A stretch of DNA of 64,000 nt from a virus (IMGVR_UViG_2873314349_000003), one strand, 5' to 3'. Shown: positions 1-60,964, counted from the stretch's first letter. Program-made: numbers and translations. Notes: generated from the letters alone by a model not told the origin.

Positions 1-3
1 GCG

Positions 4-1284
4 ATGAGCGAGACCATCTCCACCAAGCCCTGGTCTGGCTTCTCCGCCGCGGACTACTCCATTGAGCAGTGGCGCAAGGCGTGCCTGATCGGGCCGGCGG
101 AGGCCTCCGACAGCAAGGGCGACTACTCCCTGCCGGTCCGCGAGCCGGACGGCACGCTGAACCGCAACGCCGTGCACGCCGCGGCCGCCCGGATCGGGCA
201 GGTCAAGGCGGATACGGGTGCCAAGAGCTCCGCCGCGAAGACGTTGGCCGCCCTCTACCGCCAGCTGGATGAGGACCCGCCCGAATCTCTCGCCGCGCTC
301 GCCGAACCTCAGACCAAGCCGGCGAAGGAGGCCGCGTCTGACCGGCACGCCGAGCTGGTCGAGGGTGGCGGCAGCATCGGCGCCTACCTCGAGTCGCGCA
401 TCCACGCCGTGTTCACCCAGCTCACCGACGACATGTACGGCGAAGGCCACCTCACCCGGGACGAACGCATCGCCCTGTCCAGCGCGATCGGCGATGGGCT
501 GAAGGCCTTCGTCGCGCGCGTCGAGGCCGACCAGCCGGGCCTGTACCGGCGCGGCCTCTACGACACCCTCCAGGACGCGCCCGCCATGGTGTCGGAGACC
601 TCCGGCGCCACGCTGCCCGCACCCGCCGAGGCGGCCCCCGCCGCAGCCTCCCAGCCCGTCGACGCGCCGCCGGCGGCCGTCGAGGAGTCCACCCCACCGG
701 GCACCCCGCCCGTCCCCACAGAACAGATCAAGGAGAGCGAGATGCCCGAGCTCACCGAAGAGCTGCAGCGCCAGCTGGCCGAAGCCGCCACGCTGGGCAG
801 CAAGCTCGAGGAGGCCATGGCCCTGCTCGGCACGGCCACCACCCAGCTCCAGGCCCTCACCGAGCGCGCTGACGCCGCCGACGCCCGTGCGGACGCCGCC
901 GACGCCAAGGCACTGCGCCTGGAGAACGACAAGGCCGCCCGTACCGCGGTCGCCGAGGCGCTGCAAAACAGCACGCTGCCCGCCCGTTGCCACGCCCGGG
1001 TCACCGAGTCGGTGTGCCGCGCGTTGCCCACGCTCGAGAGCGGCGAGCTGGACACCGCGGCGCTGAGCGAGTCCATCACCGCGGCGATCGACGCCGAGAA
1101 CAGCTACGCCGCCGGACTGCTGGAGGACAGCGGGGCCGGGCAGGTCCGCGGCCTGGGCGAGAGCAAGCCGCTCGCCACCGAACCGCTCAGTGAGTCCGAC
1201 TTCGAGACCGGCCTGGCCGAGCAGTTCGCCCGGCTCGGCCTGACCAGCGACGCCGCCAAGGCCGCGGCCGCAGGAAGGCGGTAA
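4..1284 (+). CDS. Prohead protease/scaffold protein (may start upstream of the window)
   Basis: Precedes cement and capsid genes; Ala/Glu-rich coiled-coil C-terminal half; internal AAGGAG+ATG at 742. Confidence 0.7.
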   Translation: MSETISTKPWSGFSAADYSIEQWRKACLIGPAEASDSKGDYSLPVREPDGTLNRNAVHAAAARIGQVKADTGAKSSAAKTLAALYRQLDEDPPESLAALAEPQTKPAKEAASDRHAELVEGGGSIGAYLESRIHAVFTQLTDDMYGEGHLTRDERIALSSAIGDGLKAFVARVEADQPGLYRRGLYDTLQDAPAMVSETSGATLPAPAEAAPAAASQPVDAPPAAVEESTPPGTPPVPTEQIKESEMPELTEELQRQLAEAATLGSKLEEAMALLGTATTQLQALTERADAADARADAADAKALRLENDKAARTAVAEALQNSTLPARCHARVTESVCRALPTLESGELDTAALSESITAAIDAENSYAAGLLEDSGAGQVRGLGESKPLATEPLSESDFETGLAEQFARLGLTSDAAKAAAAGRR

Positions 1285-1291
1285 CCACCCG

Positions 1292-1636
1292 ATGGCCACC
1301 AACACCGAGCACATGTGGACCAAGAGCCTCAGCGTGCCGTGCACCGCGCCGACCACACCGAACTCCGGGGACCCCGTGCTGTACGGGCAGCTCCCCGGTG
1401 TCGCGCTCATCGACGAGCAGGCCGACGGCCTCACCACCATCGCCCTGGACGGCGTGTTCCGGCTGCCGGTCAAGGGCGAGACCACGACCAACGCCGCGGT
1501 GAACGCCGGCGACATCCTCTACTACGACTCGGGTGTGATCAACAAGGACTCCAGCAACGGCGTGCGCTTCGGGTACGCGCTGGACGCCGTCGCCTCCGGG
1601 GCCACCACCACCATCGGCGTCCTCGTCGGCTACTAG
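1292..1636 (+). CDS. DUF2190-type capsid cement/decoration protein
   Basis: 114 aa, SGDPV..G..GVAL, GVF.LP, GD.LY pattern; lies between scaffold and capsid. Confidence 0.8.
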   Translation: MATNTEHMWTKSLSVPCTAPTTPNSGDPVLYGQLPGVALIDEQADGLTTIALDGVFRLPVKGETTTNAAVNAGDILYYDSGVINKDSSNGVRFGYALDAVASGATTTIGVLVGY

Positions 1637-1649
1637 GAGAACCACTTCC

Positions 1650-2870
1650 ATGACGCTCACCACCGACTCCGGCACCTCGCTCGGTCTGGTCGACTCCTAC
1701 ACCGGCGGCACCGAGCACGCCGCCACCTCCCGCATCTACGCCAGCGAGGGCCGCCGGATCACCCGCCGCACCCAGGACCCGCGCTACCAGCGCGACCTGA
1801 CCGAGGCGCTCAGGCTCTACGAGCGGGTCCTGGGCGGCAATCGGCGCGCCGCCCTGGACTTCCAGGAATCCATGTCCCGCTCGGACTTCCAGTTCCTGTT
1901 CGGCGACGTCATCGACCGCCAACTGCTGGCCTTCTACAACACGATGCCCGTCAACTGGGACATCACCGCCCGCCGCGGCCGCGTCCGCGACTTTCGCACC
2001 GTCAAGCGGTTCACCCTGGACGGTGGCCGCGGCGTGCTGTCGGAGGTCGGCGAGCTCGCCCCGTACAAGGCCCGCGCGGTCGTCGACGGCGCCTACGAGT
2101 ACTCGGTCAAGAAGTACGGCGCGGAGATCCCGATCTCATGGGAGACCGTCGTCAACGACGACCTGGACGCCCTGTCGGACCTGCCCAGCACGCTCGGCCT
2201 GGCCGCGCGGCGCACCGAGGAACGGTTCGCCACCGCCCTGTACGCCAGCAGCTCGGGCCCGAACTCGACGTTCTTCTCCAACGCCCACAAGAACGTGATC
2301 AACCCCACCGTCGGCGGCGCCGGGGTCACCGTCACCAACCCCGCGCTGTCGGTGTCGGCGCTGCAGGTCGCCATGCAGATCATGGGCCAGCAGGTCGACT
2401 CCGACGGCGGCCCGATCTACGTGCAGTCGGTGGTGCTGGAGGTGCCTCCGGCGCTGGAGGTCGTGGCCAACAACATCGTCAACTCCACCGAGATCCTGTC
2501 GGCCAGCGGCGGCGGTGACGGCACCGGCAACGACCAGCTGCGCGTCCAGAACTGGATGCGCAACCGTGTCACCGTCCGCGTCAACCCCTGGCTCCCGCTG
2601 ATCGACACCACCACCGGCAACTCCGCGTGGTACCTGTTCGCCTCCCCCAGCTCGGGCCGCCCGGCGATGGAGGTCGGCTTCCTGATCGGCCACGAGACCC
2701 CCGAGCTGTGGATGAAGTCCCCCGACGCGGTTCGTGTCGGCGGCGGCCCGGTCGCACCGGAGGAGGGCGACTTCGAGCACGACGGCATCCGCTACCGCGT
2801 CCGCCACGTCCTGGGCGGCACGCCGATGGACCACAAGATGGCGATCGCCTCCACCGGCACCAGCTCCTGA
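1650..2870 (+). CDS. Major capsid protein (Mu gpT-like)
   Basis: 406 aa; VRDFR, KYG..I.ISWE.VVNDDL, LEVPPALE, WYLFA motifs; position. Confidence 0.9.
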   Translation: MTLTTDSGTSLGLVDSYTGGTEHAATSRIYASEGRRITRRTQDPRYQRDLTEALRLYERVLGGNRRAALDFQESMSRSDFQFLFGDVIDRQLLAFYNTMPVNWDITARRGRVRDFRTVKRFTLDGGRGVLSEVGELAPYKARAVVDGAYEYSVKKYGAEIPISWETVVNDDLDALSDLPSTLGLAARRTEERFATALYASSSGPNSTFFSNAHKNVINPTVGGAGVTVTNPALSVSALQVAMQIMGQQVDSDGGPIYVQSVVLEVPPALEVVANNIVNSTEILSASGGGDGTGNDQLRVQNWMRNRVTVRVNPWLPLIDTTTGNSAWYLFASPSSGRPAMEVGFLIGHETPELWMKSPDAVRVGGGPVAPEEGDFEHDGIRYRVRHVLGGTPMDHKMAIASTGTSS

Positions 2871-2871
2871 C

Positions 2872-5869: not shown

Positions 5870-6358
5870 ATGGCTGGTGCAGACCTTCTCGGCGACGGCA
5901 ACGTCAAGGTCACCTTCTGCCTGACCATCGCCGACATCGACAACCCCACCGCTGCAGAGCTGAACGGCGGCGTGGACCTGCAGGAGCACATCACCAAGCA
6001 GGGCCTGGACATCCAGCCCGACCAGGCGTCGGTGGACAACACCGCGCTCGCCTCGCGCACCGAGACCGAGGACGCCGGCACCGTGTCCTACAAGATCGAG
6101 CTGACCTGCAAGCGCAAGCAGCTCACGCTGGAGGACATCGCCTGGCACACCCTCACCGACGGCCAGCTCGGCTACCTGGCGGTGCGGCGCAACCTGCCGC
6201 ACGAGACCGCCTGGGCCGCAGGGCAGGACGCCGAGGTCCACCCGGTCCGCTGCGGCCGCCCGAACATGCAGCCGCCTGAGCTGAACACCGCCCAGCAGTT
6301 CAAGAGCAAGCTGTTCAACCACGCCGAGTCCGCGCCGTCTGCGGTGGTGGCCGCCTGA
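5870..6358 (+). CDS. Major tail (tube) protein
   Basis: IADIDNPTAAELNGGVDL, GYLAVRR motifs of actinophage tail tubes. Confidence 0.85.
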   Translation: MAGADLLGDGNVKVTFCLTIADIDNPTAAELNGGVDLQEHITKQGLDIQPDQASVDNTALASRTETEDAGTVSYKIELTCKRKQLTLEDIAWHTLTDGQLGYLAVRRNLPHETAWAAGQDAEVHPVRCGRPNMQPPELNTAQQFKSKLFNHAESAPSAVVAA

Positions 6359-15313: not shown

Positions 15314-16369
15314 GTGGCTCGTATCGGGCGCGGGTTCCCCTCCCGGATCACCGCGATCAAACCGGCAAGATCCACCGACGCGATCGTCGAGCTGGAGACG
15401 TTCGCCACCGTCTGGGAATTCCCCGCCCTTGAGGTCACCTCGCCCTCGATCGGCATCGAGCTGCCGGTGTTCGCCACCACCTGGGAATTCCCCGCGCTCG
15501 AGGTTGTCTACGACACCGAGATCAACCTGACGGCCTTCTCCACGGTGTGGGAGTTCCCGCCGCTGGCGGTGGACACACCGATCCTGCCCGGCATCACGAT
15601 CACCCGCGACGGCGAGATCGAGTGGCGAGGCGTCCTGTGGTCCTCGGCCAACAAGTTCCGCCCCCAGAACGATCTCGCCGGGTGGGACGACCTGCCCGGG
15701 CTGGACTCCGGTAACGCGCCCCGGGCCAACGACGACGGCTCGTGGGCCGGTCCGGACTATCCCGAGCAGCGCTCCGTCAGCGTGACCGTGCAGATCGACG
15801 ACCAGACCGCCTTCGCCGCCTCCCGCAAGGCCATCCGCGACCTGCTGACCCCCGGCGACGATGAGAGCGAGTACCCGCTGGTGATCCGGATCAGCGGGGA
15901 GACCTTGCTGGCCTACGGCAAGGTCGCCAAGCGGATCATCCCCTCGACGCTGGCGGGCATCGGCAAGGCCGACGTCGCGATCCAGTGGGTCTGCGCCGAC
16001 CCCTACCGGTACTGGCTGACCGAGTTCGGGATCACCGTCACCCCTGAAGGGCCGCAGGTCATCTCCAACGGCGGCGGCGCGCGCACCAAGCCGCGGCTGC
16101 GCTTCCACGGCCCCGCCAGCGTCCCCCGCATCCGGGTGGCCGGCCGGATCCTGGCGTTCCAGGTCGAACTCGGCGCCGGAGATGTCTTCGACGTCAACTG
16201 CCGGACCGGCGACACCACGATCGGCGAACTGGACTACGTGCGCGTCCATGACTTCTCGGTGGCCATCACCGACCTGGTGATCCCCCCGGGTGACTGGGAG
16301 CTGGAGTACATCCCCGACTCCGGCGGCGCCGCCGGGGTGGATGTGTTCTGGCGGCCCGCCGAAAGCTGA
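15314..16369 (+). CDS. Distal tail (Dit-like) protein with three N-terminal repeats
   Basis: GWDDLPGLD, QWVCADPYRY motifs; FxTxWEFPxLxV x3. Confidence 0.8.
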   Translation: MARIGRGFPSRITAIKPARSTDAIVELETFATVWEFPALEVTSPSIGIELPVFATTWEFPALEVVYDTEINLTAFSTVWEFPPLAVDTPILPGITITRDGEIEWRGVLWSSANKFRPQNDLAGWDDLPGLDSGNAPRANDDGSWAGPDYPEQRSVSVTVQIDDQTAFAASRKAIRDLLTPGDDESEYPLVIRISGETLLAYGKVAKRIIPSTLAGIGKADVAIQWVCADPYRYWLTEFGITVTPEGPQVISNGGGARTKPRLRFHGPASVPRIRVAGRILAFQVELGAGDVFDVNCRTGDTTIGELDYVRVHDFSVAITDLVIPPGDWELEYIPDSGGAAGVDVFWRPAES

Positions 16370-16394
16370 CCTTGCGCGCGGATCGGGGGTCGGT

Positions 16395-17558
16395 GTGGCC
16401 GTCCGGTACAGGTATGTATTCGCCGACCTGCTCACCGACCAGACCATCGATGACCTGCCGCTCAGCAAGGTCTCCTTCGACCACCGCATCAACCAGCCGG
16501 GCACCTTCGCCGGCGGCCTGCCGATCACCAACCGGCGGATCGCCCGCCGGCTGGACCGGGTGATCCCCGCCGACATCGACGACCTGTCAGCGGGCCCAGG
16601 CCGGATCGTGTGCCACTGCCTGCGCGACAACGGCACGCGCGTGGACCTGTGGGGGACGTACTGGATCTGGTACGCCAAAACCAGCCAGGGCCGCAAGGGG
16701 CCGCCGCAGGTGGACCTGCGCGGCATGTCCTTGGACGGCTACCTGGCGTCGGTGGAGATCCAGCAGAACTTCATCCGGTACGGCACCGACCGGGTCACCA
16801 TCGCCCGGGACCTGCTCACCGAGGCCCAGGCCCTGCCGTACACCGGGCTCGGCATCGCCTTCGCTTCCGGCACCAGCGGCGTGCTCCAGGACCTGATCGT
16901 CGCGGCCACCGACAAGGCCAACTACGGCGAAACCGTACGCAAGCTGGCCGAGCAGACCAACGGGTTCGAAACCCACATGGACACCTACCTGGCCGACGGA
17001 CAGCGGCGGCGCGAGCTGCGCTGGGCGTTCCCCAAGCTCGGCGACGTCGACGGCCGCCACCACGAGTTCTCCCAGCCAGGCAACGTGCTCGAATGGTCGC
17101 AGGAGTCCGACGCGCTGCGCGGCGGCACCCGGTGGCGGGCCCGCGGCGACTCGGCCAACAACGACCTGTCGGCGGCGTCCGGGCCGCAGTTCTCCACCCC
17201 GGTGGAGGCCACCGCGCACCTGCAGGCCGGGTGGCCGCGCATCGACCGGACCCTGGACCTGCAGGGGGAGATCGACCCCTCGGCGCTGAAGTCGTATGCG
17301 GCGTACTGGGCGGCGACCGCGGCCGGCGCCGTGCGGGTACACACCGCGACCGTGCGCCTGGACCCGGCCACCTCGCTCACCCCGCACCGGCTCGGGGACT
17401 ACGCCACGCTGCGGCTCACCAACCAGCGTTTCCCCCGCCGCAACGGGGTCGCAAGCTTCGTGCGCAGCTGGAGGGTGATCGGCATGGAGATCAGGCCGCC
17501 CGAGCGGGGCAACGGCATCGAAGAGGCCAATCTGATCTTCGAGGAGCTGGTGGCCTGA
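16395..17558 (+). CDS. Minor tail (hub/Tal-like) protein
   Basis: YRYVFADLLT..IDDLPL, GWPRID, LGD motifs; follows Dit. Confidence 0.8.
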   Translation: MAVRYRYVFADLLTDQTIDDLPLSKVSFDHRINQPGTFAGGLPITNRRIARRLDRVIPADIDDLSAGPGRIVCHCLRDNGTRVDLWGTYWIWYAKTSQGRKGPPQVDLRGMSLDGYLASVEIQQNFIRYGTDRVTIARDLLTEAQALPYTGLGIAFASGTSGVLQDLIVAATDKANYGETVRKLAEQTNGFETHMDTYLADGQRRRELRWAFPKLGDVDGRHHEFSQPGNVLEWSQESDALRGGTRWRARGDSANNDLSAASGPQFSTPVEATAHLQAGWPRIDRTLDLQGEIDPSALKSYAAYWAATAAGAVRVHTATVRLDPATSLTPHRLGDYATLRLTNQRFPRRNGVASFVRSWRVIGMEIRPPERGNGIEEANLIFEELVA

Positions 17559-39751: not shown

Positions 39752-39881
39752 GGGTCGATCCTCTCGCACAGTCAAGATCATTAGGGGTGGCTGATAATCG
39801 GCGTTATCGGTACATGGAGCGCGACGGCCGTTCTCCCTGTTGTCAGAGGGAGGGCGGCCGTCGCGTGTGGATCAGCTCTGA

Positions 39882-40433: not shown

Positions 40434-40470
40434 GGCGCACCCTTCCCTGGTCACACCGTGAACACGGACA

Positions 40471-43350: not shown

Positions 43351-43722
43351 CTACGCCTGGATGACGGGACTGTGCACGTCCCGGTGGGTGAGCTGCACGG
43401 CCACGCCGCAGTCGCGCAACCCGCGAGCGATCTCGGCGGCCAACACCACCGAGCGGCGCCGCCCGCCGGCGCATCCGGCGGCGATGGTGCAGTCCAGGCC
43501 GCAGGAGGCCAGGCCGATGGCGTAGTGGATGGCCGCGGCGATGGTGGAGCCGATGCCCGGGGTGGCCATGACGTGGTCGCGGACGTCCGCGTCGAGGCCG
43601 GTGGCGTGCCGCATGGCGGGGTCGTCGCAGCGGTTGCGGAACAGGCGGCGGGCGTCGATGGTCAGGTCGGCCTCAGGCGCCGGGGCGTGGCCGTAGCCGA
43701 AAGACATGACGTGGATGGTCAC
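43351..43722 (-). CDS. RapZ C-terminal-domain-like protein
   Basis: SFGYGH, TGLD..V, GCAGGRRRSV, HRD. Confidence 0.8.
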   Translation of the reverse strand: MTIHVMSFGYGHAPAPEADLTIDARRLFRNRCDDPAMRHATGLDADVRDHVMATPGIGSTIAAAIHYAIGLASCGLDCTIAAGCAGGRRRSVVLAAEIARGLRDCGVAVQLTHRDVHSPVIQA

Positions 43723-44989: not shown

Positions 44990-45238
44990 TCAGCCGAACA
45001 GGCGGTGCAGTCCCTTGGCGCGGGCGCCGGCGCGCCGCAGGGCGTCTTCCTTCAACCGGGTGGCCTTGCGCTTGCCGACGGCGGCCACTAGCTCGCCCTC
45101 GGCCTGGTTCTTGGCCTGTCTGGTGACGCCGAGCCCGGTCGCGGTCTCGGCGAGCTTGCTGAGCGTGGCGGCGGTCGCGGCGGCCTGCTTGGCCTTGGCG
45201 AGCTGGCCGGCGGTCATGCGGCTGGGCATCGCCGTCAC
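44990..45238 (-). CDS. Small basic protein
   Basis: GTGA overlap with HU. Confidence 0.6.
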   Translation of the reverse strand: MTAMPSRMTAGQLAKAKQAAATAATLSKLAETATGLGVTRQAKNQAEGELVAAVGKRKATRLKEDALRRAGARAKGLHRLFG

Positions 45239-45525
45239 CTCGCCGCGGGGGTCTTGTTCACCAGGGCCTTGAACTCGGTGCCGGGCTTGAACCGAGGGAC
45301 CCGGGACTCGGCGATGTGGATGGTCTCGCCGGTGGAGGGGTTGCGGCCCTGCCGGGCCGGCTTGTGGGACGCCTCCCAGGTGCCGAACCCGATGACCTGG
45401 ACCCGGTCGCCGGAGGCGACCGCGGTGCGGATGGTGTCCAGGACTGCGGTGACCGCGGCCTCGGCGGTCGTCTTGTGGATGTCGAGCCGCTCGGCTACGG
45501 CGGCGATGAGCTCGGTCTTGTTCAT
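45235..45525 (-). CDS. hup: HU family DNA-binding protein
   Basis: MNKTELI, GFGTW, GRNPSTGE, PRFKPG. Confidence 0.95.
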   Translation of the reverse strand: MNKTELIAAVAERLDIHKTTAEAAVTAVLDTIRTAVASGDRVQVIGFGTWEASHKPARQGRNPSTGETIHIAESRVPRFKPGTEFKALVNKTPAAR

Positions 45526-46893: not shown

Positions 46894-49068
46894 CTAATTC
46901 GCTCCGTCCACGGCTTGGGCCGCGCGCAGGGCGAGTGCCTCGCGGATGAGGTCGGGGTAGACCGGCCACTTGTTGCCGGTGGAGGGCACCTTGACCCCGA
47001 GCTCGGCGAGCTGCTCGCGCAACTGCTTGCCGGAGAGCCGGGCGTAGGGCGCCCACCGGGGGGCGTGCCGGGACAGCAGCGCGGGCAGGTCCGCCAGGTA
47101 CCGCATCTCGCCTCCGAGCACTGCGGCCAGGTCCTCCAGCAGATCCCGCTCATCCTCGGGCTGAGCGGCGACGCCGGCCTTCTCGCGGATTCGCAGGGCA
47201 CGCTCAACGACCACGCCCGCCTCGGCCTGGGTCACGTAGTAGCCGCGCAGCAGCCCGGGCTTGGCGGTGAACCCGCGGGCCATGAACGTGCCCACGTCGC
47301 CGGGGCCCTCGTCGGTTTTGGGCTCCAGGCCGACAGCGGAGATTCCCGCCGTGTAGGAGCCGGTGCCGAGGATGGCGTCGTTGCTGGTCTGGTCGCCAAT
47401 CGCGAAGCACGCCTTGTTGGAAGTGATGGCCATGAGCCTGCGCGGCAGCGACGCCGAGGAGGGCTCCGGCGTCGCGAAGATCAACGTGACGGCGTACTTG
47501 CGGGCCGCGCTCTCTAGCTTGACCGCGATCTCCAGGGCGGCGGCGCCGTACTCCTCGTGCATGAACAGGGCCTGGCACTCGTCGATCACGATGATGCGCG
47601 GGCGCAGCCGGGCGTCCTTCTCGGCCAGCTCGCGGGTCACAGCGCGCGCGCCGTGCTCCTGCAGAGCCTTACCGCGGACGTTCAGGTCGTCGTACATGTC
47701 GCGGAGCGTGGCCAGGCACGCCTCCACGACCTCCTCCCCGGTCCCGGTCATCAGGGTGCGCAGCCGGGGCTTCATCGGGTCGTAGTCGGCATTGACCGCC
47801 ATGACGAACACGTCCGCGTCGACCAGCGGGTCGAGCAGCGCGCCGAGCAGGGCGGTGATGATGAGCGTGGACTTGCCCGACCCCATCATCCCGGCGATGC
47901 CGTAGTTAGCCTCGAACAGCCGGCCGATGATGGTCTTGCCGCGGATGTCCATGGCGACGGGCACGCCCTTGAAGTAGTCCCCTACACCGTCGGTGAGCAG
48001 GGGCCACGGCGGAACCGGGCCGGTCAAGGCACCCTGGTCGGCCACCCACAGGTCCAGTACACCGGGCAGGTTGCGCGGCTCGGTAGGCCAGACCTCGACA
48101 GGGAAACGCACCAGGTTGTGCGCCAGGACCGGCTTCTTCTTGACGATCATCTCCACTGTCACGGCCGGTGGGAGTTCCACCTGGGTGCGGTAGCCCTTGC
48201 CGTCCCGTTCGGTGGGTAGCACGAACCGGGGCCGCCACCCACCCCTGAACGCCTTGTTCAACGCGGAGATCTCCAGGTTGCGTAGCGCGTTGAGGATCGC
48301 TCCCTCGTCGGGTATCACGTCCCGGCCGGTGGCGGCTTCCTCGGCGGACCCGGAGATCCACCGCGGTAGCGCCCCCACCCGGCGCCCTTCCAGGTACGCG
48401 GCGAGGGCCAGGGCGAGCGGCGCCACGACCGGCACCGCGGGCCACACGAACGCCACGGCGCTGAACACCGACCGGACCGCGCTGAACACCGCTGCGAACA
48501 CCGTGGTCGGCTCCGCCACGCCCGCCATGCCGACGCCGATGCTGACCACCAGCAACACACCTCCTGTACCAGCGGCCACGGCGCCTGCGAGTTTGGCCAG
48601 GCCCACCACCATGCCCGGCAGATCGGCCAGGCGGGTGTGCCGCGCCTGCTGGGCGCGCTGCTTACGCTCGATCCACTCCGCCAGCGCCTCCCGGTCGCCT
48701 GCGGCTTCGGCGGCGCGGATCTGTCGCCGGTGCACGCCGAACGTGGCGGCGTCGTAGGCGCGGACGATCCACGACCGCACGCCCTGGGCCACGGTGAGCA
48801 GGACGCCGGCGGTGCCGCGCGCTCCGGCGCGGGCCCGCTCGGACCGGGGCAGGCGGGTGATACTGCCGACGATCCTGACCTGCAAGGACTTGCCCGGCTC
48901 GGCGTCGTCCTTGAACAGCACGCGGCCCTCGATCACGGGATGGGGTTCGGCGTCCCGGCCAGGCGCGTCTTGCTCGTGGTCCCGCGGAGCGGAGGCCGGG
49001 GTGAGATGCAGCGGCGGGGCGTCCTCGCCGTCGCGGACGACGTAGAACCGGCGGTCGGGGTGGCTCAT
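46894..49068 (-). CDS. FtsK/SpoIIIE-family conjugative translocase (TraB-like)
   Basis: TM region; Walker A GMMGSGKS; Walker B IIVIDECQ. Confidence 0.9.
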   Translation of the reverse strand: MSHPDRRFYVVRDGEDAPPLHLTPASAPRDHEQDAPGRDAEPHPVIEGRVLFKDDAEPGKSLQVRIVGSITRLPRSERARAGARGTAGVLLTVAQGVRSWIVRAYDAATFGVHRRQIRAAEAAGDREALAEWIERKQRAQQARHTRLADLPGMVVGLAKLAGAVAAGTGGVLLVVSIGVGMAGVAEPTTVFAAVFSAVRSVFSAVAFVWPAVPVVAPLALALAAYLEGRRVGALPRWISGSAEEAATGRDVIPDEGAILNALRNLEISALNKAFRGGWRPRFVLPTERDGKGYRTQVELPPAVTVEMIVKKKPVLAHNLVRFPVEVWPTEPRNLPGVLDLWVADQGALTGPVPPWPLLTDGVGDYFKGVPVAMDIRGKTIIGRLFEANYGIAGMMGSGKSTLIITALLGALLDPLVDADVFVMAVNADYDPMKPRLRTLMTGTGEEVVEACLATLRDMYDDLNVRGKALQEHGARAVTRELAEKDARLRPRIIVIDECQALFMHEEYGAAALEIAVKLESAARKYAVTLIFATPEPSSASLPRRLMAITSNKACFAIGDQTSNDAILGTGSYTAGISAVGLEPKTDEGPGDVGTFMARGFTAKPGLLRGYYVTQAEAGVVVERALRIREKAGVAAQPEDERDLLEDLAAVLGGEMRYLADLPALLSRHAPRWAPYARLSGKQLREQLAELGVKVPSTGNKWPVYPDLIREALALRAAQAVDGAN

Positions 49069-49778: not shown

Positions 49779-50228
49779 TCAGGCGGCGATGATGAGGGCG
49801 GTGATGAACAGCCAGCCGATATGCCAGGACTGGTCGAGGGCGTAGGCGCCGGTGCCCAGGTGTGGGGCGTCGTCGCGGCCGGGGCGGGGTGCGCCGAGCC
49901 GGTAGAAGTCGCCCTTGCCGATGCGCTCGGCGAGGGCGGCCAGGGTGGTGCGGCGGTCGGCCCAGTAGTGCGAGGCCGCGTCCACCGCCAGGCCGGCCAG
50001 CACGGCGGCGGGGTGGAGCCGGGCCCCGGTGGCCAGCTCCAGGGCGAGCAGGAACGCGGCCTTGGTGGCGGTGAGCGTGGCGACGTGGCGGGCGCAGGCC
50101 AGGCGCCCCGTTCGGCCGGGGGTGCCCTTGATGCACGCCTGCGCGTGGGTCTGCACCCAGTGGTCGCCGAAGCTGTGCGCGGCGTAGAGGGCGGCGAACA
50201 CAGCGGCGAAAGTCGCGAGGGTCATCAC
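49779..50228 (-). CDS. DUF3307-like membrane protein
   Basis: AH..GDHWVQT, HY.ADRR, LDQSWH. Confidence 0.8.
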   Translation of the reverse strand: MMTLATFAAVFAALYAAHSFGDHWVQTHAQACIKGTPGRTGRLACARHVATLTATKAAFLLALELATGARLHPAAVLAGLAVDAASHYWADRRTTLAALAERIGKGDFYRLGAPRPGRDDAPHLGTGAYALDQSWHIGWLFITALIIAA

Positions 50229-51763
50229 GACACCTCCAGGCGGGTTATGTTGATGTCGTCGGCGTGGACACTCGGCGCGCCGTTCACGGTGGCTGGCGCA
50301 GAGGGCGGCTGGACGACATTGCCGGGCAGGAACCGGTAACCCTTGGCGGTCATCTCTTCGCGCGCCGCCTGGACACGAAGCCGTGCCCAGCCCTTGCTGA
50401 ATCCGTATCGCTCGACGATCTCGCCTTGGGTGGGCGTGCGGCCTTTACGCATGGCCGCGCGGACCCACTTCTCGGCCTCGCGATTGTCCTGCTCATCCGG
50501 ACGATCCCGGTCACTGTCGTGCTCGCTGTCGAGGGCCGGAGAAGTGACCGGCTGGATGACAGGCGAGGGGGTGTCGGCGGGGGGCTGCGGCGGACAGTCG
50601 ATCGTCGTCGCCGTGGTCACTTCATCGTTAGCCGGAGTGATCGGCGAAGTGACCGGTGAAGTGATCGCGGCGATGGCGCCGTGGTGGTCGATGGCCGGCC
50701 CTTCGACCGTCGTCGCGACGGTCATTTCGCCGGGCGCCGGAGTGGTGTCGGCAATGACCATCTGGGTGACCGTGATGAGGTCGGACTGGGTGCGGATGAG
50801 GGCCGCCTGGGCGGCCGTGATCTGTTCGCGGGCTCGGTCGAGCAGTACCGCCCCCTCGGTCGTGGTCTCGTCGGCCTGGACCGCGAGGATCGCCGCCGAG
50901 GGGGACTGCTCGCCGTGGCGGACCGCCCACTTCAACGCCTGCCAGGTCTCCGCGCGGTGGAGCACCCAGCGCAAGACGCTGAACTTGGGGGCCCGTGGGT
51001 CGATGAGCCCAGCGGTGCGGAGCTGGGTTCGGTGCAGGTGCCGGGAGTGCATGGCCCACAACCAGGGCGACAGGATCGACGCCAGGCCGAACATGATGGC
51101 CTGGTCGGTGGGATGCCCGTCCGGGGCGTAGTGGTGGTAGTTGAGCCCGCCCACGATCAGGGCGATGGCGTAGGAGGTGACGCGCAGCCGGAACACACTG
51201 TCGCCTTCGATGAGGGCGACGTGGGCGTGCCAGCCGACGTAGATAGCGATGGACTCCACCACTGCAGCGGCACCGAGCGCGGCCAGCAGATCCCAGCCGA
51301 ACCCCTTGTGGAAGGCGGTGACCTGCCCGGCGATCGCGACCAGGTTGACGCCGACGATCGCGCCGACCAGGACGAGGGTGCGGCGCAGCGTCTCGGCGCG
51401 CCGGCGAGCCGTGCCCCACCAGGCGGCCCGATCGCGGCTTCGGATGTCCTTGCGGTGGCGCTTGGCCTCCTCGGCGCGCTGTCGGCGCCGCAGCCGGGCC
51501 TCGGCGAGGATGTCCTCGCGCCGGGCCTCGGCTTCGGCGTCACGGGCACGCCGCTCGGCTCGCGTGGGCCTGGTCGAGGGCGAGGTCGAGGCGTCGTCCC
51601 AACCATGCGTGGTGTCCTCGGCCGCAGGCATGCGGGTGGTGCTGCGCTCGCGCTCGATCCGGAGCTGGGTGTCGGAGCGCAGCACCTCGGCCTGAGCACG
51701 GCGGGCCTCGGCGTCGGCCTCGGCGACCGCCCGCTCGGCCCGGTGATCGTAGAAGGTGGTCAC
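50225..51763 (-). CDS. Spread (SpdB/DUF2637-like) membrane protein with C-terminal HTH
   Basis: Coiled coil, four TM, Pro/Thr linker, terminal HTH-like segment. Confidence 0.7.
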   Translation of the reverse strand: MTTFYDHRAERAVAEADAEARRAQAEVLRSDTQLRIERERSTTRMPAAEDTTHGWDDASTSPSTRPTRAERRARDAEAEARREDILAEARLRRRQRAEEAKRHRKDIRSRDRAAWWGTARRRAETLRRTLVLVGAIVGVNLVAIAGQVTAFHKGFGWDLLAALGAAAVVESIAIYVGWHAHVALIEGDSVFRLRVTSYAIALIVGGLNYHHYAPDGHPTDQAIMFGLASILSPWLWAMHSRHLHRTQLRTAGLIDPRAPKFSVLRWVLHRAETWQALKWAVRHGEQSPSAAILAVQADETTTEGAVLLDRAREQITAAQAALIRTQSDLITVTQMVIADTTPAPGEMTVATTVEGPAIDHHGAIAAITSPVTSPITPANDEVTTATTIDCPPQPPADTPSPVIQPVTSPALDSEHDSDRDRPDEQDNREAEKWVRAAMRKGRTPTQGEIVERYGFSKGWARLRVQAAREEMTAKGYRFLPGNVVQPPSAPATVNGAPSVHADDINITRLEVS

Positions 51764-52685: not shown

Positions 52686-52737
52686 CTTGCGGGTGTGGCC
52701 ACACCCAAGTTACGTTAGGTGTGGCCACACCCGCAAG
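52686..52737. promoter_or_regulatory. Twin palindromic operator
   Basis: GGTGTGGCCACACC at 52692-52705 and 52718-52731 inside a 20-bp inverted repeat. Confidence 0.85.
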
Positions 52738-53152: not shown

Positions 53153-53815
53153 GTGGACGTCGTAGACCGCTGGACCGGGCGCCATGCCTGCGCTCTCCAG
53201 GCTGCGTTACGCATGACCCACGATGAGTTCGCTGAGTCGCTGGGTGTCGCCCGCAGAACCGTCGCCGCATGGCACGGCAGGCCGGCCGTGGTCTTGCGCT
53301 CCGACATGCAGCGCGCTCTGGACACCGCCTATGAGAGGGCGCCCGCGACAGCCCGGGCCCGATTCATGCAACACCTCGGTCGCCTGCAGCGCGGCCCCGG
53401 CAAGCAAGAGCAGGCGCTCACGGTGGCCATCGCTGTCGTCGTCAAGGATGGGCACGTGCTCCTGGTGTGCAGGCGCGACGCCGAGACGGCAGGCATCACC
53501 TGGCAGTTCGTCGCTGGCGTCGTCAAGCCCGGCGTAGCACCCGAGATCATCGCGGTCCGGGAGACCTTTGCCGAGACCGGCGTGCACTGCTCCGTCCGAA
53601 CGCACCTCGGCAGCCGCCTTCACCCAGTGACGGGCGTCCACTGCGACTACTACCTGTGCGACTACCTTGCAGGGGACGTCGAGAACCGCGACCCCGAAGA
53701 GAATGTGAGCGCCATCTGGGCGCTGCAGACCGCTCTCACCCGCTTCATACCGCCCGAACAGATCTACGCCCCGGTGCTCGACGCCATCGAGGAGAACCAT
53801 GAACGACCAGCCTGA
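53153..53815 (+). CDS. XRE-HTH fused to a degenerate NUDIX domain
   Basis: LRMT.DEFAE.LGV..RTVAAW; GVVKPGV..RETFAETG. Confidence 0.85.
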   Translation: MDVVDRWTGRHACALQAALRMTHDEFAESLGVARRTVAAWHGRPAVVLRSDMQRALDTAYERAPATARARFMQHLGRLQRGPGKQEQALTVAIAVVVKDGHVLLVCRRDAETAGITWQFVAGVVKPGVAPEIIAVRETFAETGVHCSVRTHLGSRLHPVTGVHCDYYLCDYLAGDVENRDPEENVSAIWALQTALTRFIPPEQIYAPVLDAIEENHERPA

Positions 53816-54200
53816 ACGGCCCGCCATTGCCGCTGCCGTCATCGTGGACGACGGTCGACTCCTACTCGTCCGCCGTCGAGTCAGCGAGGGGAGCCTGTCG
53901 TGGCAGTTCCCGGCCGGTGCCGTGGAAGCGGGAGAGTCCGGGGAAGAGGCTGCCGTGCGAGAAACGCGTGAGGAGACGGGCCTCGCGGTCGTCCCGGTCA
54001 AGCATCTCGGGGAACGCATCCACCCGAACACCGGCCGTCTCATGATCTACGTGGCATGCGAGGTGCTCGACGGATCTGCTCATGTGGCCGACGCCGACGA
54101 ACTCGCCGAGGTCGAATGGTGCGATCGCGTGTTGGTGGCAGACCATGTCCCCTACCCGTTCTATGAGCCTGTTCAGGCGTACTTGGACGGGCTCCTCTGA
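53799..54200 (+). CDS. NUDIX hydrolase
   Basis: Canonical GAVEAGE..AAVRETREETG. Confidence 0.9.
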   Translation: MNDQPERPAIAAAVIVDDGRLLLVRRRVSEGSLSWQFPAGAVEAGESGEEAAVRETREETGLAVVPVKHLGERIHPNTGRLMIYVACEVLDGSAHVADADELAEVEWCDRVLVADHVPYPFYEPVQAYLDGLL

Positions 54201-55187: not shown

Positions 55188-55940
55188 ATGATCGACATCC
55201 CTGCACGAGCTTCTGCATCCCCCTTCGATGCGCTGCGCCACGAAGATCAGAACGGCGAGTATTGGACCGCCCGTGAGCTCCAGGTCGTCATGGGCTACGA
55301 GAAGTGGGAACACTTCCAAGACGTCATCGAACGCGCCATCCGATCCGCTGAGAACACCGGCACCTACTCTGAGCAGCCTTTTTCCCGGATCCGGGAGAAA
55401 GGCACCGGCGGCGCACCCCGCATCGACTACCGCTTGAGCCGTCACGCGGCCTACCTCGTGGCCATGAACGGCCATCCGAACAAGTCCCAGGTCGCCGCGG
55501 CGCAGGCGTACTTCACGGTCCGAACTCGCGAGGCCGAGGTCGCCATGGCCAAGCCCATGTCTGAGCTGGAGATGGCCCGCAAGTACGTCGCCGTCCTGGA
55601 GCGAGAGGCAGCCCTCTCCAAGGAGTTGGAGGTGGCTAAGCCCAAGGCCACCAAGTGGGAGGCCTACATCAACAGCGACGGCCTGATCGGCATGCGAGAG
55701 CTGGCCGACATCCTGAAGACCAACGTCGTCACGCTCACGAGCTGGCTGGTCGAGGTCAACCTGTTCCGCCGAAGCATCTCGCGGCACGGCGGCGCGCGGA
55801 ACCTCCCCCGGGCCACCACTCAGAACGCTGGCTACTTCGAGACCAAGACCGAGACGGCCAACGGCGCTGTGTTCCCCGTCGCCTACGCCACGCCTCGCGG
55901 GGTGGACGTGGTTGTGGATCTCTGGTGGCGGAAGCAATAA
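55188..55940 (+). CDS. Phage antirepressor (DinD/BRO-like N-terminus, KilAC/ANT C-terminus)
   Basis: EYWTARELQ..MGY..W..F, DY.LSR.A.YL, AQAYF, KPKA, TPRG. Confidence 0.88.
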   Translation: MIDIPARASASPFDALRHEDQNGEYWTARELQVVMGYEKWEHFQDVIERAIRSAENTGTYSEQPFSRIREKGTGGAPRIDYRLSRHAAYLVAMNGHPNKSQVAAAQAYFTVRTREAEVAMAKPMSELEMARKYVAVLEREAALSKELEVAKPKATKWEAYINSDGLIGMRELADILKTNVVTLTSWLVEVNLFRRSISRHGGARNLPRATTQNAGYFETKTETANGAVFPVAYATPRGVDVVVDLWWRKQ

Positions 55941-56415: not shown

Positions 56416-56871
56416 TCAGGCGATCCGCTGACGGCCGACGAGCGGCAGCCACCCCGCAGAGGACGGCCAGGTGCGGTGCGGCATCTGGGTCCGCAGATCC
56501 AACGCCTCAGCGGCCCAGCCTTCGGCGGCTTTCAGAGCGGGACCGGAGATCTGATCGTAGGCGGGGGCAACCCAGATCCAATGGAAGGCCTCGCGCTTCC
56601 ACCGCTCGGCCAGATGCTTTCTGATCCGCCCGGTCACGCCCTGGGCGCCAGACGCGTTGCCGAGCCACAGGATGCGGTGCTTGGCGTCGAGAGCGAGGTA
56701 CAGGCCGGGAGAGTAGGCCTGAACGCTGTCGACCCGGGACCAGAAAGGCTCGCCGCTGCTGTAGCAGCCCAAGGCGTGCGTCAGGAGCGGGACGTGATGC
56801 CGCTGCAGGACCGGCCCCGGCGCCGAAGCGTCGGCGTACGGGGCGCAGGCCGACGGCCCGATGCCGCTCAT
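56416..56871 (-). CDS. GIY-YIG-like nuclease (divergent)
   Basis: PGLY-x10-WLG, RIRKH, downstream helix Glu; ATGA-coupled to the upstream gene. Confidence 0.6.
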   Translation of the reverse strand: MSGIGPSACAPYADASAPGPVLQRHHVPLLTHALGCYSSGEPFWSRVDSVQAYSPGLYLALDAKHRILWLGNASGAQGVTGRIRKHLAERWKREAFHWIWVAPAYDQISGPALKAAEGWAAEALDLRTQMPHRTWPSSAGWLPLVGRQRIA

Positions 56872-58973
56872 TCGGTGTCCTGCGAGAAGGGGAAGTCGTT
56901 GATGTCGCCGGCCGTGGCGTCGGTGTTGGTCGGCCGATACCGCAGCAGCTTCAGCTGCTGGCTGGCGACCCCCAAGATGCCCTGCAGCGCCTCGAGCTCG
57001 TCCTGCCAGCCTTCCCGATCCTCGGCCGTCATCTCCCGGCCCTCCCCGACGAGAGGCACCATGGCCGTGAAATGCTCGGCGATAGCGTTCGCGGCTCGTT
57101 TCGCGCTCTTGAACAGGCCGACCGTGTTCTGGAGCTTGGCCGTCCACTGCTCGCTGGGCGACAGCTGGGACTGTGTGCCCGGCCTGCCGTCGGGCTCGGG
57201 CTGGCTGGTCTCCAACGGCCAATGGCTGGTGAACCACTCCGAGTCGGCCGCCTTCGTCTCGGTGGTCACCACCTCCCCGTTCACAACGCGGCGCAGACGG
57301 CCCTCAGGTGTGCCCTGCCGCGGCGCGGCCGGGCGGCCAGCGCGTACCTGGAGCACCTCGGCGAACGCGTCGATAGCCTCGACGAACAGCCTGATCCCGT
57401 CGCTGGTGGTGCGGGCTGCAGCGAGCTTGGTCGACGGCGTGCGCCGGTCGCCAGTGGATCCGTAGGAACCGAGGAGCACCTTGCCGTTGACCAGACCCGG
57501 AACCGCGACATGCGCCAACTCGGCACGAGCCTCGTCGCGGATCGGGCCGGGGTCGGCGGACATCGCGGCGGCGATCAGGTCAGCGGCCGACAGGCCGGTC
57601 GTAGGAATGCCCTGCCGGACCATCCGCTGATGGGGGGTGTCCATCGCGGCCGCCGGGAGATCGACTCCGCCGACTGCGGCGGTGAGCAGGGCGCTGCGGA
57701 TCTCGGCCCTGGTCTGCACGTGCTTAGCGGTCAGGTGTGCTGGCGGCGGCTCAACGAGCACCTTGGTCGTCCTGCGCAGATCGGGGATGTTGTTGGGGAA
57801 GACCACCCGGTCGACCAGCCGGACAAGCGCCACCACGGCCTCACGCGGCTCGGCGTGAAGACATGCAGCAGGCGTCGCACCGGACAGGACCGCGTGTTCC
57901 AGGTCCGTGATCGCGTCGGCGGCATACGCGGCGTCGGCCAGCTTGCGGCCGGACGCCATGGCCTGGTTGGCGCCGGTGAAGTCCAGCGGGCCCCGCAGGT
58001 GGGTGCGCAGGTTGGTCGAGGCCAGCGCTGCGTCGAAGTCCGGCCGGCTCTCGTCGGCCGGGACATATCCGATCACGAACGCGGCGTCGGTGGTCGCAAC
58101 CTGGATCGCGGCGTTGGCGGCCTCCGCGAACCGGCGATTCTGCATCGCCTCCGCGGCCTTGTTCGGATCGTCGGCCGGGATCTCGATGCTCTCGGGATCG
58201 ACGCCGAAGAACTCGTTGAGCTTCGCGGTGTATCGGTCCCGCCAGTCAGCCGGGTCCCGCCAGCGCTGATCCTCGGGTCCACCGAAGATCCGTTGAGGCA
58301 GGCCGAGCAGTCCGACCGCGGGGAGGAGGCCGTACAGGTCGTGGCGGTGCCGGGTGCGGTTGGAGCCGGCCGTGGCGGCGGAGGTGTCCCACACCTGGTC
58401 GCCGACGCGGTAGCGCACGATGTGGTAGGTGGCCCGCTCGGACTGGCCGGAGACCTGAAGGTCGGCCTTCAGGTCGTACTTACGGGCCTTCTCGGCCGCG
58501 TTCAGCCTGCCCTCGACGAAGGTCAGGTGGTCTATGAGCGACTGCTCGGACTCGAACTCGACCTCCAGTTGCGCGGGCTGGCGGCCGTCTGGCGCCGTCA
58601 TCGCCACGACGCGCGGCGTGGCCACGGCGACGGCCTGGGCCACGTCGTAGGCGAAGCGGATGTTGAACTGGTTGATCGCGCTGGCCAGACCGGGCTGCTT
58701 GGCGATCAGCTGGTAGAGGATGCCGTGCTCGGTCTTCACCTTGAGGACGGCGTTGGGTTTGAAGCCCTTGACCACGATGCCGGTGTTCTTGCTGCCGCTG
58801 GTTTCGATCAGGGGCTTGATGTTGGTGATGTCGGTGGCGAGGCGTTCCAGGGCGCTCTGGTCGAGAGTGCACCGTGGGTCTTTCAGGCCTGCCTGGACGA
58901 ACTGGGCCCGGTACTCGGGCTCGTCGAGGTAGGGGAAGGGTCCGGTCGGGCGGTTGGGACGACGCGGTGACAT
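56868..58973 (-). CDS. 701-aa protein, possible ParB/Srx-like N-terminal domain
   Basis: GAGG RBS; DL..DLQVSGQ.E and AGSNR motifs; C-terminal coiled coil. Confidence 0.75.
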   Translation of the reverse strand: MSPRRPNRPTGPFPYLDEPEYRAQFVQAGLKDPRCTLDQSALERLATDITNIKPLIETSGSKNTGIVVKGFKPNAVLKVKTEHGILYQLIAKQPGLASAINQFNIRFAYDVAQAVAVATPRVVAMTAPDGRQPAQLEVEFESEQSLIDHLTFVEGRLNAAEKARKYDLKADLQVSGQSERATYHIVRYRVGDQVWDTSAATAGSNRTRHRHDLYGLLPAVGLLGLPQRIFGGPEDQRWRDPADWRDRYTAKLNEFFGVDPESIEIPADDPNKAAEAMQNRRFAEAANAAIQVATTDAAFVIGYVPADESRPDFDAALASTNLRTHLRGPLDFTGANQAMASGRKLADAAYAADAITDLEHAVLSGATPAACLHAEPREAVVALVRLVDRVVFPNNIPDLRRTTKVLVEPPPAHLTAKHVQTRAEIRSALLTAAVGGVDLPAAAMDTPHQRMVRQGIPTTGLSAADLIAAAMSADPGPIRDEARAELAHVAVPGLVNGKVLLGSYGSTGDRRTPSTKLAAARTTSDGIRLFVEAIDAFAEVLQVRAGRPAAPRQGTPEGRLRRVVNGEVVTTETKAADSEWFTSHWPLETSQPEPDGRPGTQSQLSPSEQWTAKLQNTVGLFKSAKRAANAIAEHFTAMVPLVGEGREMTAEDREGWQDELEALQGILGVASQQLKLLRYRPTNTDATAGDINDFPFSQDTE

Positions 58974-59678: not shown

Positions 59679-59909
59679 ATGGCCTTCATCGAGGAGCGCG
59701 TCGACACCGTCGAGAACGACATCGCGGAGATCAAGGAGACCCTCGGAGCGCACTCCGAGGTGCTCGCCGGGCACACCCGCTCCCTGACCGCACTGGAGCG
59801 GAACACCGCACTGATGCGCGACGACATCGCCGAGCTGAAGGCCGGCCAGATCGAGATCCGGGACCTGCTCGCTCGCGTCGTCGCACGTCTGGAGGGTGTG
59901 CAGGCGTAG
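59679..59909 (+). CDS. Small coiled-coil protein
   Basis: Heptad pattern; hairpin at 59946-59979 follows. Confidence 0.65.
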   Translation: MAFIEERVDTVENDIAEIKETLGAHSEVLAGHTRSLTALERNTALMRDDIAELKAGQIEIRDLLARVVARLEGVQA

Positions 59910-60090
59910 ACCGCCCATCGCACGCTGATCCGTTAGCCTGACGTTGAGAGCCCTGGCGTGGGGAAGCGCTGGGGCTCTCGCTATGCCGGTAAACCTCACC
60001 GCCGGTTGCCACGTCTACTAATCCCACACCGAGGGCCTCACCGGCGCCCCGCGCTCCCGGTACGTGGAGCGCGGGGCGTTCGAGGGGTGA

Positions 60091-60669
60091 TCAGTCGCCG
60101 AGTGTCAGTGTGACCGGGTGGGTCATCTGCTCCCCGGTGTACTGCACGCGGCCGCGGTGGCTGATCTCGACGGCGTAGAAGGGGTGGCCGGCCTGGACGC
60201 CGGTGACGCTGAACAAGAAGATGCACACCCCGCGCTGGTGACTCCACGAGCCGTAGGCGAGCTCGCCGAGGCCGAGTGTGCGGCCCGACGGGTCGGAGAC
60301 CACCACCTGGGCGCCCTCGCGAATATCGCTGTACCCGCCCTTGGAGGTGCAGGTGAGGTCGTTCTCGATGATGGTGCTGTCGCTGCTGAAGCTCACTTCG
60401 AGCTGGCCGGTGACGGTCAGCGTGGAGGGCGACGGCGAGGGGGATGGCGACGCGGCGGCCGGGGCCGAGGCTGCTGCAGGGGCCGGCGTACTGCCCTGGG
60501 CGAGCGTGAGGATCGTGTAGGCGGCGCCGACGAGTAGCACCAGAGGCACGGTCACGGCGAGCACCCATAACAGTGTGCGGCGCCGCGGACGTGGCGGGGG
60601 AGGAGGCGGGTGGCCATAGCCCGGTGGCGGGCCGTAGGGGGGTTGCTGGGGGCCGTGCTGGTAGGCCAT
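60091..60669 (-). CDS. Membrane-anchored protein with Pro-rich N-terminus
   Basis: AGGAG RBS; one TM; C..GGYSDI..GAQV.V. Confidence 0.75.
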   Translation of the reverse strand: MAYQHGPQQPPYGPPPGYGHPPPPPPRPRRRTLLWVLAVTVPLVLLVGAAYTILTLAQGSTPAPAAASAPAAASPSPSPSPSTLTVTGQLEVSFSSDSTIIENDLTCTSKGGYSDIREGAQVVVSDPSGRTLGLGELAYGSWSHQRGVCIFLFSVTGVQAGHPFYAVEISHRGRVQYTGEQMTHPVTLTLGD

Positions 60670-60916
60670 CGCGGACTCCTGGGGAAAGCCTGGTGGACTT
60701 TTCCTGGACGGTCGGTGGACGCGGTGGGGTTACCGTGAGGTGCGTCTGGTGATCGGATTGTTAGCTCGCAAGGGGTGGGTGAGCCCGCCAGGCGCTAAAC
60801 TACGGAGAGTGACATGGCTGACGATCCGCTAGATCGCTTAGTGACCACTCGCCTTCGGGGTTTTCGCTGAAATCCCAGGTGAGAATACGCAAGCGGGTAT
60901 GTCGTACAGCCCAAAC

Positions 60917-60964
60917 CGCCTTACAAGCGAGGGGTCACTGGTTCGAACCCAGTAGCGCCCACCA
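60917..60964 (+). tRNA. 3' half of tRNA-Val(TAC): att core, not an intact tRNA
   Basis: CTTACAA anticodon loop, GGTTCGAACCC T-arm, CCA end; no 5' half upstream. Confidence 0.88.

Follow-up and report, generated by a model that had tools for sequence, protein, structure and literature searches.

Do the phage genes and the TraB-type conjugation module in the viral record IMGVR_UViG_2873314349_000003 belong to one mobile element, or do they merely lie side by side? TraB-type conjugation is credited with most of the gene flow in mycelial actinomycetes and phages with little of it, and a first-pass annotation of the 64,000-nucleotide stretch analysed here (the window) had suggested that one element might spread both by virions and by hyphal conjugation, with a stack of nested elements as an equal alternative. 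The window corresponds to G000:C1:4111542-4175541 of its host genome and covers the right two-thirds of the element in question, element A; window coordinates are used throughout, with negative values lying to the left of the window. Family-level searches place the host in the same family as Nonomuraea and Planotetraspora, not in Streptomyces. We conclude that the phage and the TraB module probably form one 97.15-kb integrated element, for which spread by virion and by hyphal transfer is a proposed mechanism. A single-element architecture is supported by gene content, by the geometry of the attachment (att) sites and by a gene order that is conserved among relatives, while this particular copy is partly accreted.

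Element A begins 36 kb left of the window. There, ARAGORN located the intact tRNA-Val(TAC) that the first-pass annotation had placed left of the window (-36261 to -36189, 36.2 kb from its edge), adjoined on the left by a host ROK-family gene. The 3′ part of this tRNA recurs as att copy 2 (Table 1), and the element measures 97,151 bp from repeat to repeat. Further core copies, shorter and perfect, lie at window +74360-74403 (copy 3, at the right end of a neighbouring element that we call element B) and, inverted, at +75844-75886 (the fourth). Between tRNA-Val and 60917 there is no tRNA-derived att: comparison of all 84 predicted tRNAs with the internal junction zones gave chance-level matches of 12-15 nt only. 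Repeat searches around 39-55 kb likewise gave only chance-level matches and no direct repeat pair, so that an internal att pair able to release 41.6-54 kb separately, named beforehand as the finding that would speak for two elements, was found by neither search. A 21-nt motif located 62-82 nt left of att copy 2 is also present 59-79 nt right of the intact tRNA-Val. The two copies are possibly matching arm sites of element A; a weaker third copy (61043-61062) lies in element B.

Genes were called with a codon-usage model trained on the long open reading frames (ORFs) of the window; gene starts are therefore only approximate, and short calls may in some cases be mistaken. Functions were assigned by Pfam, PHROGs and NCBIfam scans. 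The unpublished genomes G025, G030 and G036 underlie no conclusion drawn here. To the right of the integrase and repressor genes lie about sixty plus-strand genes, of which the early ones include an AAA_24 protein, a C5 methyltransferase and a Toprim/AAA_25 primase-helicase. Judged from its gene content, the prophage part of element A is a complete-looking temperate siphophage with terminase, portal, capsid, tail tube, tape measure, endolysin, integrase and repressor. The Dit-like and minor tail proteins are approximately 30% identical to minor tail proteins of isolated Streptomyces siphophages. Relatives of the capsid protein in IMG/VR are also only about 30% identical and gave no context, and window positions 1-25000 had no megablast match among phage records.

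The TraB module spans 41.6-54.2 kb. Its minus-strand operon starts at about 52.6 kb and ends at 41.6 kb, in the order SpdB2/DUF2637-like protein, small genes, TraB, M48-like protein, HU, NUDIX and RapZ_C-like proteins and XerC-like recombinase. TraB carries the Walker A motif GMMGSGKST and the Walker B motif IIVIDE, and its frame is intact, with no internal stop, in every sequence of our TraB tree. It is homologous to Tra proteins of small actinomycete conjugative plasmids (best match 45% identical; 27%, E 2e-14, to that of the 12,652-bp S. venezuelae plasmid NC_007431; also about 27% to that of a 12.2-kb S. viridosporus plasmid) and had no match among 50,697 phage records. A look-up of public sequencing runs for positions 41000-50999 listed none. 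The SpdB2 likeness of the first operon gene rests on its transmembrane (TM) layout and an Atlas lead, the nearest clusters being DUF2637 and 'putative SpdB2' (score 0.92-0.93). Pfam and NCBIfam detected no Rep family in 39-60.9 kb, and NCBIfam returned nothing for ten module and cargo proteins. The arrangement read in the first-pass annotation is therefore borne out by domain searches: Pfam and PHROGs confirm capsid, tail, tape measure and endolysin; the phrog_1358 match and the Walker motifs identify a TraB/FtsK gene, in an operon with a putative spread protein and no rep gene; and a phage-type antirepressor with ANT and Bro-N domains lies beyond it. The module is embedded among phage genes: an antirepressor homologue (52% identical) lies within the early region of a Nonomuraea prophage (G043), and window gene g53 has a homologue inside the phage part of a viral contig (G345).

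The same linkage recurs in other genomes. TraB relatives were collected by a scan with one genome per species, which gave eleven close ones, and by family-level searches, which gave further ones. Close TraB genes were present in 7 of the 401 genomes of the family sample, G000 included, and in none of the 19 genomes of the same-genus sample. In every assessable close relative from the family, phage lysis and tail genes adjoin the end of the TraB operon and lie on the opposite strand, which amounts to about ten loci, made up of eight genome loci, a metagenomic viral contig and one locus divided by a contig break (among them G043:C14, G043:C16, G042:C20, G090:C1, G211:C4, G211:C8, G041:C44 and the viral contig G345). 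In the Nonomuraea loci G043:C14 and G042:C20 (TraB 59-61% identical), homologous tail and lysis genes and a tRNA-Met are followed by the opposite-strand TraB/Spd operon; identities to the window are 74-77% (G043) and 39-42% (G042) for the major tail protein, 42% for a minor tail protein and 73% for the amidase (G043). Portal, tape measure and lysis genes have the same order in G043:C16 and G211:C4 (TraB 56-61%), as do the genes of G345, a 46-kb metagenomic viral contig with the closest TraB (65-67%). In G297 (TraB 61%) a contig break intervenes, TraB ending C25 and the phage lysis and tail genes starting C42. IMG/VR classes a 90.6-kb Nonomuraea-type record, TraB included, as one provirus.

Two relatives are compact and bounded by a single att pair. 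In G090:C1 (TraB 62-64%), a 43-nt tRNA-Ile repeat pair bounds 35.9 kb. Its single integrase is accompanied by genes for primase, terminase, portal, protease, capsid, major tail, tape measure and endolysin, and TraB and an Spd-like gene come after these; a further gene of integrase size or with homology to integrases was not found inside this pair. In G211:C8 (TraB 38%), 40.3 kb lie between the two copies of a 46-nt tRNA-Lys repeat; genes for terminase, major tail protein, tape measure protein and lysis are located there together with NUDIX and TraB. The Planotetraspora locus G041:C44 (TraB 67%) shares with the window the module recombinase (75% identical) and the NUDIX pair (78-84%). Downstream of its TraB module, PHROGs identified endolysin, tail, tape measure, adaptor, capsid, protease, portal and terminase genes; its early genes are up to 81% identical to those of the window phage, and a serine-integrase-like gene stands at the far end. 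A homologue of the G090 gene beside the distal att adjoins this serine integrase. Several boundaries could not be set in relatives with serine integrases.

Some assignments were discarded. TraB seemed to stand alone when a capsid query found nothing in five TraB-relative genomes, but the phages in question are mosaic and were recovered with tail and lysis queries. The G041 locus was considered as a free-standing 11-kb AICE (actinomycete integrative and conjugative element) and rejected on account of the phage genes directly downstream and the serine-integrase-like gene. The tRNA-Met and a 'tRNA-Ser' beside the Nonomuraea prophages were rejected as att sites, since neither has a repeat. Directly after the odd 'tRNA-Ser' call, the G043 prophage encodes a TROVE/Ro60-like protein (L112:3944-5720), probably a phage-borne Ro60 with a tRNA-like Y RNA.

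The phage and the TraB module are best regarded as one inherited unit because their order is kept across different integrases (tyrosine integrases at three tRNAs, and serine integrases) and partly unrelated structural genes, and because one att pair bounds both parts in the two compact relatives. In the mechanism that we propose, the integrase would recombine the two att copies of element A and release a circle, which the phage replication genes would copy. The absence of a RepSA or RepAM requirement for the TraB module would be explained if these replication genes serve the excised circle. Either the late genes would then package the DNA into virions, or the de-repressed TraB operon would pump the double-stranded circle into a neighbouring hypha, where Spd-type proteins would spread it through the recipient mycelium before it re-integrates at tRNA-Val. 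The phage may thus also spread between hyphae as naked DNA. As to origin, element A is likely to descend from a tandem of a phage and an AICE in one tRNA core that later lost the internal att, the AICE integrase and rep. The recombinase found in both the window and G041 sits exactly where the lost AICE integrase would be. On the outer side of the distal att, an integrase is also the immediate neighbour in the window and G090 (in both as part of an integrase and rep element) and in G211:C8 (at least an integrase), which indicates that tandems do form at these sites.

Several observations weigh against this reading. With 97 kb as against 36-58 kb for compact relatives, packaging of element A as a single unit is doubtful; later insertions have added to its length, and it may by now be too large for a capsid. 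It contains an intact second recombinase and a recombinase remnant, and in the 22-41.5 kb region accretion is indicated by a murJ cassette of low GC, by sequence in common with contig C2 of the strain and by repeats that have further copies in the chromosome. The match of TraB to Pfam FtsK_SpoIIIE falls under the curated cut-off, and 8-mer cluster scans for a clt-like array or an array of TraB recognition sequences (TRS) gave background only. The relatives with phage genes all come from one bacterial family and are not independent cases; shared ancestry inflates their number. TraB relatives of Lentzea and Amycolatopsis (Pseudonocardiaceae; 47-56% identical) occur in ordinary AICE-like contexts with DNA methylase- and primase-region homologues and, in several cases, also xis and integrase homologues; with the queries used, no phage structural genes were found within 10 kb of them. 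In the TraB tree, phage and AICE-like contexts are split on one branch (support 89/92); this split coincides with host family, and a single origin is therefore not demonstrated.

The strongest competing explanation is a stack, in which a prophage without a right att of its own, a decayed Rep-less AICE (integrase 41594-42562 and TraB) and remnants are functionally unlinked. The first-pass annotation had seen only recombinase remnants here, yet the module recombinase is intact, and this gene, together with the remnant, the 97-kb size, the heterogeneous composition of the cargo and the duplicated, diverged small-gene module, is what such a stack would leave behind. Tandem accretion at tRNA-Val is evident, with four att copies and the abutting element B. 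However, no tRNA-derived att lies between lysis and traB, no direct repeat surrounds 39-55 kb, and the convergent order of phage and TraB genes in about ten loci with different integrases and structural genes speaks against a stack, as do the two compact relatives with a single att pair, of which G090 lacks a second integrase inside. We therefore regard the stack as unlikely in general; for this decayed, oversized copy a mere stack is possible. Of the two readings that the first-pass annotation had weighed equally, the nested stack is right in part, for the accreted 22-41.5 kb with its recombinase remnant, the recombinase of the module and the abutting element B, and the single integrated unit is supported by the att pair and the recurrent order.

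A second alternative is that the TraB module and its Xer-like recombinase are an AICE-type satellite that integrates in prophage right arms and travels inside the phage capsids as a parasite of the phage. The recombinase lies exactly at the junction of phage and module in the window and in G041, the conserved 62-nt stretch adjoins it, and the module is attached to phages with unrelated structural genes. The modules of G090, G043, G042 and G345 have no recombinase homologue, though, flanking repeats were not found, and phage regulatory genes stand on the far side of the module, which makes a satellite quite improbable.

Element B, 13.4 kb long, extends from att copy 2 to att copy 3 (60917 to window +74403; its part right of the window is L003:1-10403). 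Besides integrase and RepSA (Table 1), it holds a GntR regulator, an HTH_31 protein, a flavoprotein and a Shedu SduA defence gene. It thus has the integrase, RepSA, GntR-type Kor regulator and att repeats of a pSAM2-type AICE, but no Tra of its own: no Tra ORF was found by size or family in window +61 to +74.4 kb. We take it to be a separate pSAM2-type AICE remnant without a Tra gene, separate because GTGCCATTA arm repeats lie just inside both its ends. That the TraB module left of 60917-60962 and the integrase and RepSA right of it are halves of one split AICE with the phage merely upstream is hardly credible: read on the minus strand, rep, int, att, regulators, Spd and TraB follow one another in a circularly permuted version of the Lentzea AICE order TraB...rep-xis-int, and the integrases abutting the distal att from outside would fit, but element B is bounded by its own repeats at att copies 2 and 3, the phage/TraB junction has no att, and the neighbouring integrases are accounted for by the ordinary build-up of AICEs where a tRNA serves as a hot spot.

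Table 1 Positions of the features of element A and its right-hand neighbour (window coordinates)
Feature	Position	Strand	Evidence and remarks
Integrase	-36080..-35151		phrog_1; directly right of tRNA-Val
Repressor	-34370..-33801		phrog_3949
Terminase, portal and MuF genes	-7673..-2616
Head-module gene, no family found, open at window edge	1..1284	+	Coding signal; follows terminase/portal/MuF
Major capsid protein	1650..2870	+	PF25209 Phage_capsid_4, E 6.5e-42
Major tail protein	5870..6358	+	phrog_2491, E 6e-25; homologue in Nonomuraea G043 prophage
Tape measure protein, 1726 aa	7925..13105	+	Several tape-measure PHROGs; homologues in G043, G042, G297
Dit-like and minor tail proteins	15314..17558	+	phrog_5577, phrog_33
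Endolysin, N-acetylmuramoyl-L-alanine amidase	20112..21089	+	PF01510, E 6e-22
Holin-like gene, one TM segment	21800-22060		TM scan; after endolysin
Small-gene module, first copy	23331..25551		2-TM micropeptide, 49-aa protein, promoter-like stretch
GmrSD_C/HNH gene	24104-24721		PF07510; within first small-gene module
Low-GC cassette with accessory murJ	26399..31062		Inverted 173-nt arms, 77% identity; GC 0.62-0.65
Accessory murJ	26645-28315	-	PF03023, E 3.6e-92
Tyrosine recombinase remnant	31435..32268	-	PF02899, E 5e-6, 27.2 bits vs cut-off 22.3; PF00589, E 0.006, under curated cut-off
Small-gene module, second copy	37173..39188		Homologues adjoin TraB operon in Nonomuraea and viral contig G345
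Promoter-like stretch, 62 nt	39749..39810	-	81% identical to L016:15440-15501; in Planotetraspora directly after recombinase stop codon
Two-gene cargo: 4-TM protein and 307-aa protein	39882..41394	-	Insertion relative to Planotetraspora element
Intact XerC-like tyrosine recombinase	41594..42562	-	PF00589, E 3.9e-31; end of TraB operon; 75% identical to G041 gene at same position
RapZ_C-like gene and NUDIX hydrolase	43351..44408	-	PF22740; PF00293, E 9e-16; Pif-like position
HU-type DNA-binding protein	45235..45525	-	PF00216, E 4.6e-31
TraB-type FtsK/SpoIIIE DNA translocase	46894..49068	-	phrog_1358, E 5.5e-15; N-terminal TM segments
SpdB2/DUF2637-like membrane protein	50225..51763	-	TM scan; C-terminal helix-turn-helix (HTH)-like end; homologue beside TraB in G042, G043, G090
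52-nt palindrome	52686..52737		Between divergent genes; candidate operator of TraB operon
Overlapping NUDIX gene pair	53213..54200	+	PF00293, E 4e-13 and 2.5e-21; homologous pair ends G041 module
Phage antirepressor	55188..55940	+	Bro-N (PF02498) and ANT (PF03374)
Coupled 701-aa and 151-aa cargo genes	56416..58973	-	No family found
21-nt motif	60835-60855	+	20/21 match to copy right of tRNA-Val, E 0.004
att copy 2	60917-60962	+	46/46 identical to tRNA-Val 3′ part; right end of element A, left end of element B
Element B, pSAM2-type integrase	61045-62181	-	PF00589
Element B, RepSA	62181-63845	-	PF20199, E 3.6e-96

The closest known element is the Streptomyces plasmid-phage pZL12/phage phiZL12 (Zhong et al. 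2010, J Bacteriol 192:3747, as cited in PMC3583192, PMC4487206 and PMC5431353). According to the account of it in PMC3583192, its conjugal transfer requires a tra gene; pZL12 and its relative pSLE1 are described in PMC4487206 as extrachromosomal plasmids of about 86-90 kb with ParA/ParB. In element A, as in pZL12, genes for tailed-phage particles and a tra gene of Streptomyces type share a replicon, here within one att pair; unlike pZL12 and pSLE1, element A resides at a tRNA and has a tyrosine integrase for this, and no ParA/ParB was found among the part of its early genes that was scanned. No sequence relation to these plasmids was detected, the minor tail protein having no match in 72,556 plasmid records and TraB none in the phage records. 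A plasmid-phage with a tra gene is therefore already known; in the literature searched we found no description of tRNA-integrated, att-bounded TraB prophages.

The AICEs pSAM2, SLP1 and pMEA300 are 9-24 kb long, carry RepSA, RepAM or Prim-Pol and have no virion genes (PMC2440964, PMC3218068). Element A resembles them in integration at a tRNA 3′ end, in an FtsK/SpoIIIE-type Tra and in a NUDIX gene at the place of Pif, and it has putative Spd-type proteins. It differs from them in being Rep-less in 39-60.9 kb, in its 97-kb size and full virion and lysis set, and in a TraB module without its own att pair. A survey of AICEs that demanded Int, Rep and Tra together would not list elements of this type (PMC3218068). 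TraB itself is a motor homologous to the TraB proteins of pSVH1 and pSG5, FtsK-like double-stranded DNA translocases that bind clt, with which it shares Walker A/B motifs and an N-terminal membrane part; identity is low (26.6-26.8%, E 2e-14), and no clt array accompanies it in our scans.

PhiNon1 of Nonomuraea gerenzanensis, a 59-kb prophage that occurs both integrated at the 3′ end of a tRNA-Val and as a circle, has been likened to pZL12 (PMC5431353). It shares with element A a host of the same family and integration at tRNA-Val, but uses tRNA-Val (CAC). The main text of that report does not mention TraB (PMC5431353), and the only TraB-like match in the record, 31% identical, is on the chromosome. 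pZL12, pSLE1 and PhiNon1 are all plasmids or elements that replicate themselves. Phi1207.3 of Streptococcus pyogenes is a prophage reported to transfer by a conjugation-like process (PMC4260502); its host belongs to an unrelated phylum.

If a prophage carries TraB, new hosts could be lysogenised without receptors, lysis or free particles, while dispersal through soil as a virion would be kept. This would change the view of host range, superinfection immunity and phage defence in these bacteria, and would account for Rep-less TraB modules that are discarded by surveys needing Int, Rep and Tra. As models, the compact relatives of 36-40 kb, each bounded by a single att pair, can be tested directly. 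More tentatively, and with some doubt on our part, there might be a lineage of temperate actinomycete phages with two routes, by capsids and by TraB-mediated passage of the naked double-stranded genome, in which phages and AICEs interconvert by tandem tRNA integration and loss of integrase and rep, AICEs being partly capsid-less descendants or donors.

The 22-41.5 kb region between lysis and traB is, to judge from its composition and copies elsewhere, accreted cargo and not host core DNA. The distance from the lysis genes to the point where the TraB operon ends is as short as 0.24 kb in G211:C8 and reaches about 20 kb in the window; this interval acts as a hot spot for cargo. The first-pass annotation had found no tRNA-derived att or host gene here; the former stands, and a murJ paralogue is present. 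It is an accessory copy, because the genome has its own murJ elsewhere, 72% identical, as do all same-genus relatives. Closer copies of murJ, 78-88% identical, are on other contigs in three relatives. The first small-gene module shares 73-88% homology with 37173-38413, the two copies having diverged. The 39882-41394 cargo matched no family except a weak hit to DUF6731 (E 0.0015, under the curated cut-off).

The recombinase remnant is 50% identical to a gene on C2, a second contig of G000 (L138, L139; 25.5 kb), and its neighbour encodes a protein 94% identical to one on the same contig. C2 is plasmid-like, with ParA-like and integrase matches, and also shares an 81%-identical NUDIX protein with the island. 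The stretches 33149-34085 and 36668-37072 have 96-97% identical copies at C1:3301927-3302865 and C1:5873871-5874274 and may be short mobile or recently exchanged sequences; a 273-aa ORF in them belongs to no family found. Near the distal att, the DNA of the 701-aa and 151-aa genes (56342-59521) is 94% identical to the same-genus genome G004 (C31:79226-82395), and an adjoining 86-nt stretch (59515-59600), 72% identical to the 3′ end of a NUDIX gene (54104-54189), is a remnant of a further NUDIX gene.

Two tRNA calls within element A are unrelated to its ends: a phage-borne tRNA-Met(CAT) between the early and packaging genes (L002:7743-7816, window -12257 to -12184), which has no repeat and is not an att, and a tRNA-Gly(GCC) called by ARAGORN within the tape measure gene (8787-8860), probably a false positive. 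Beyond att copy 3 (L003:10593-15249, window +74593 to +79249) lie an insertion sequence with an rve transposase, the inverted fourth att copy and a pPIWI_RE (prokaryotic Argonaute-related) module beside a 1104-aa gene; the tRNA-Val hot spot continues there as a defence island.

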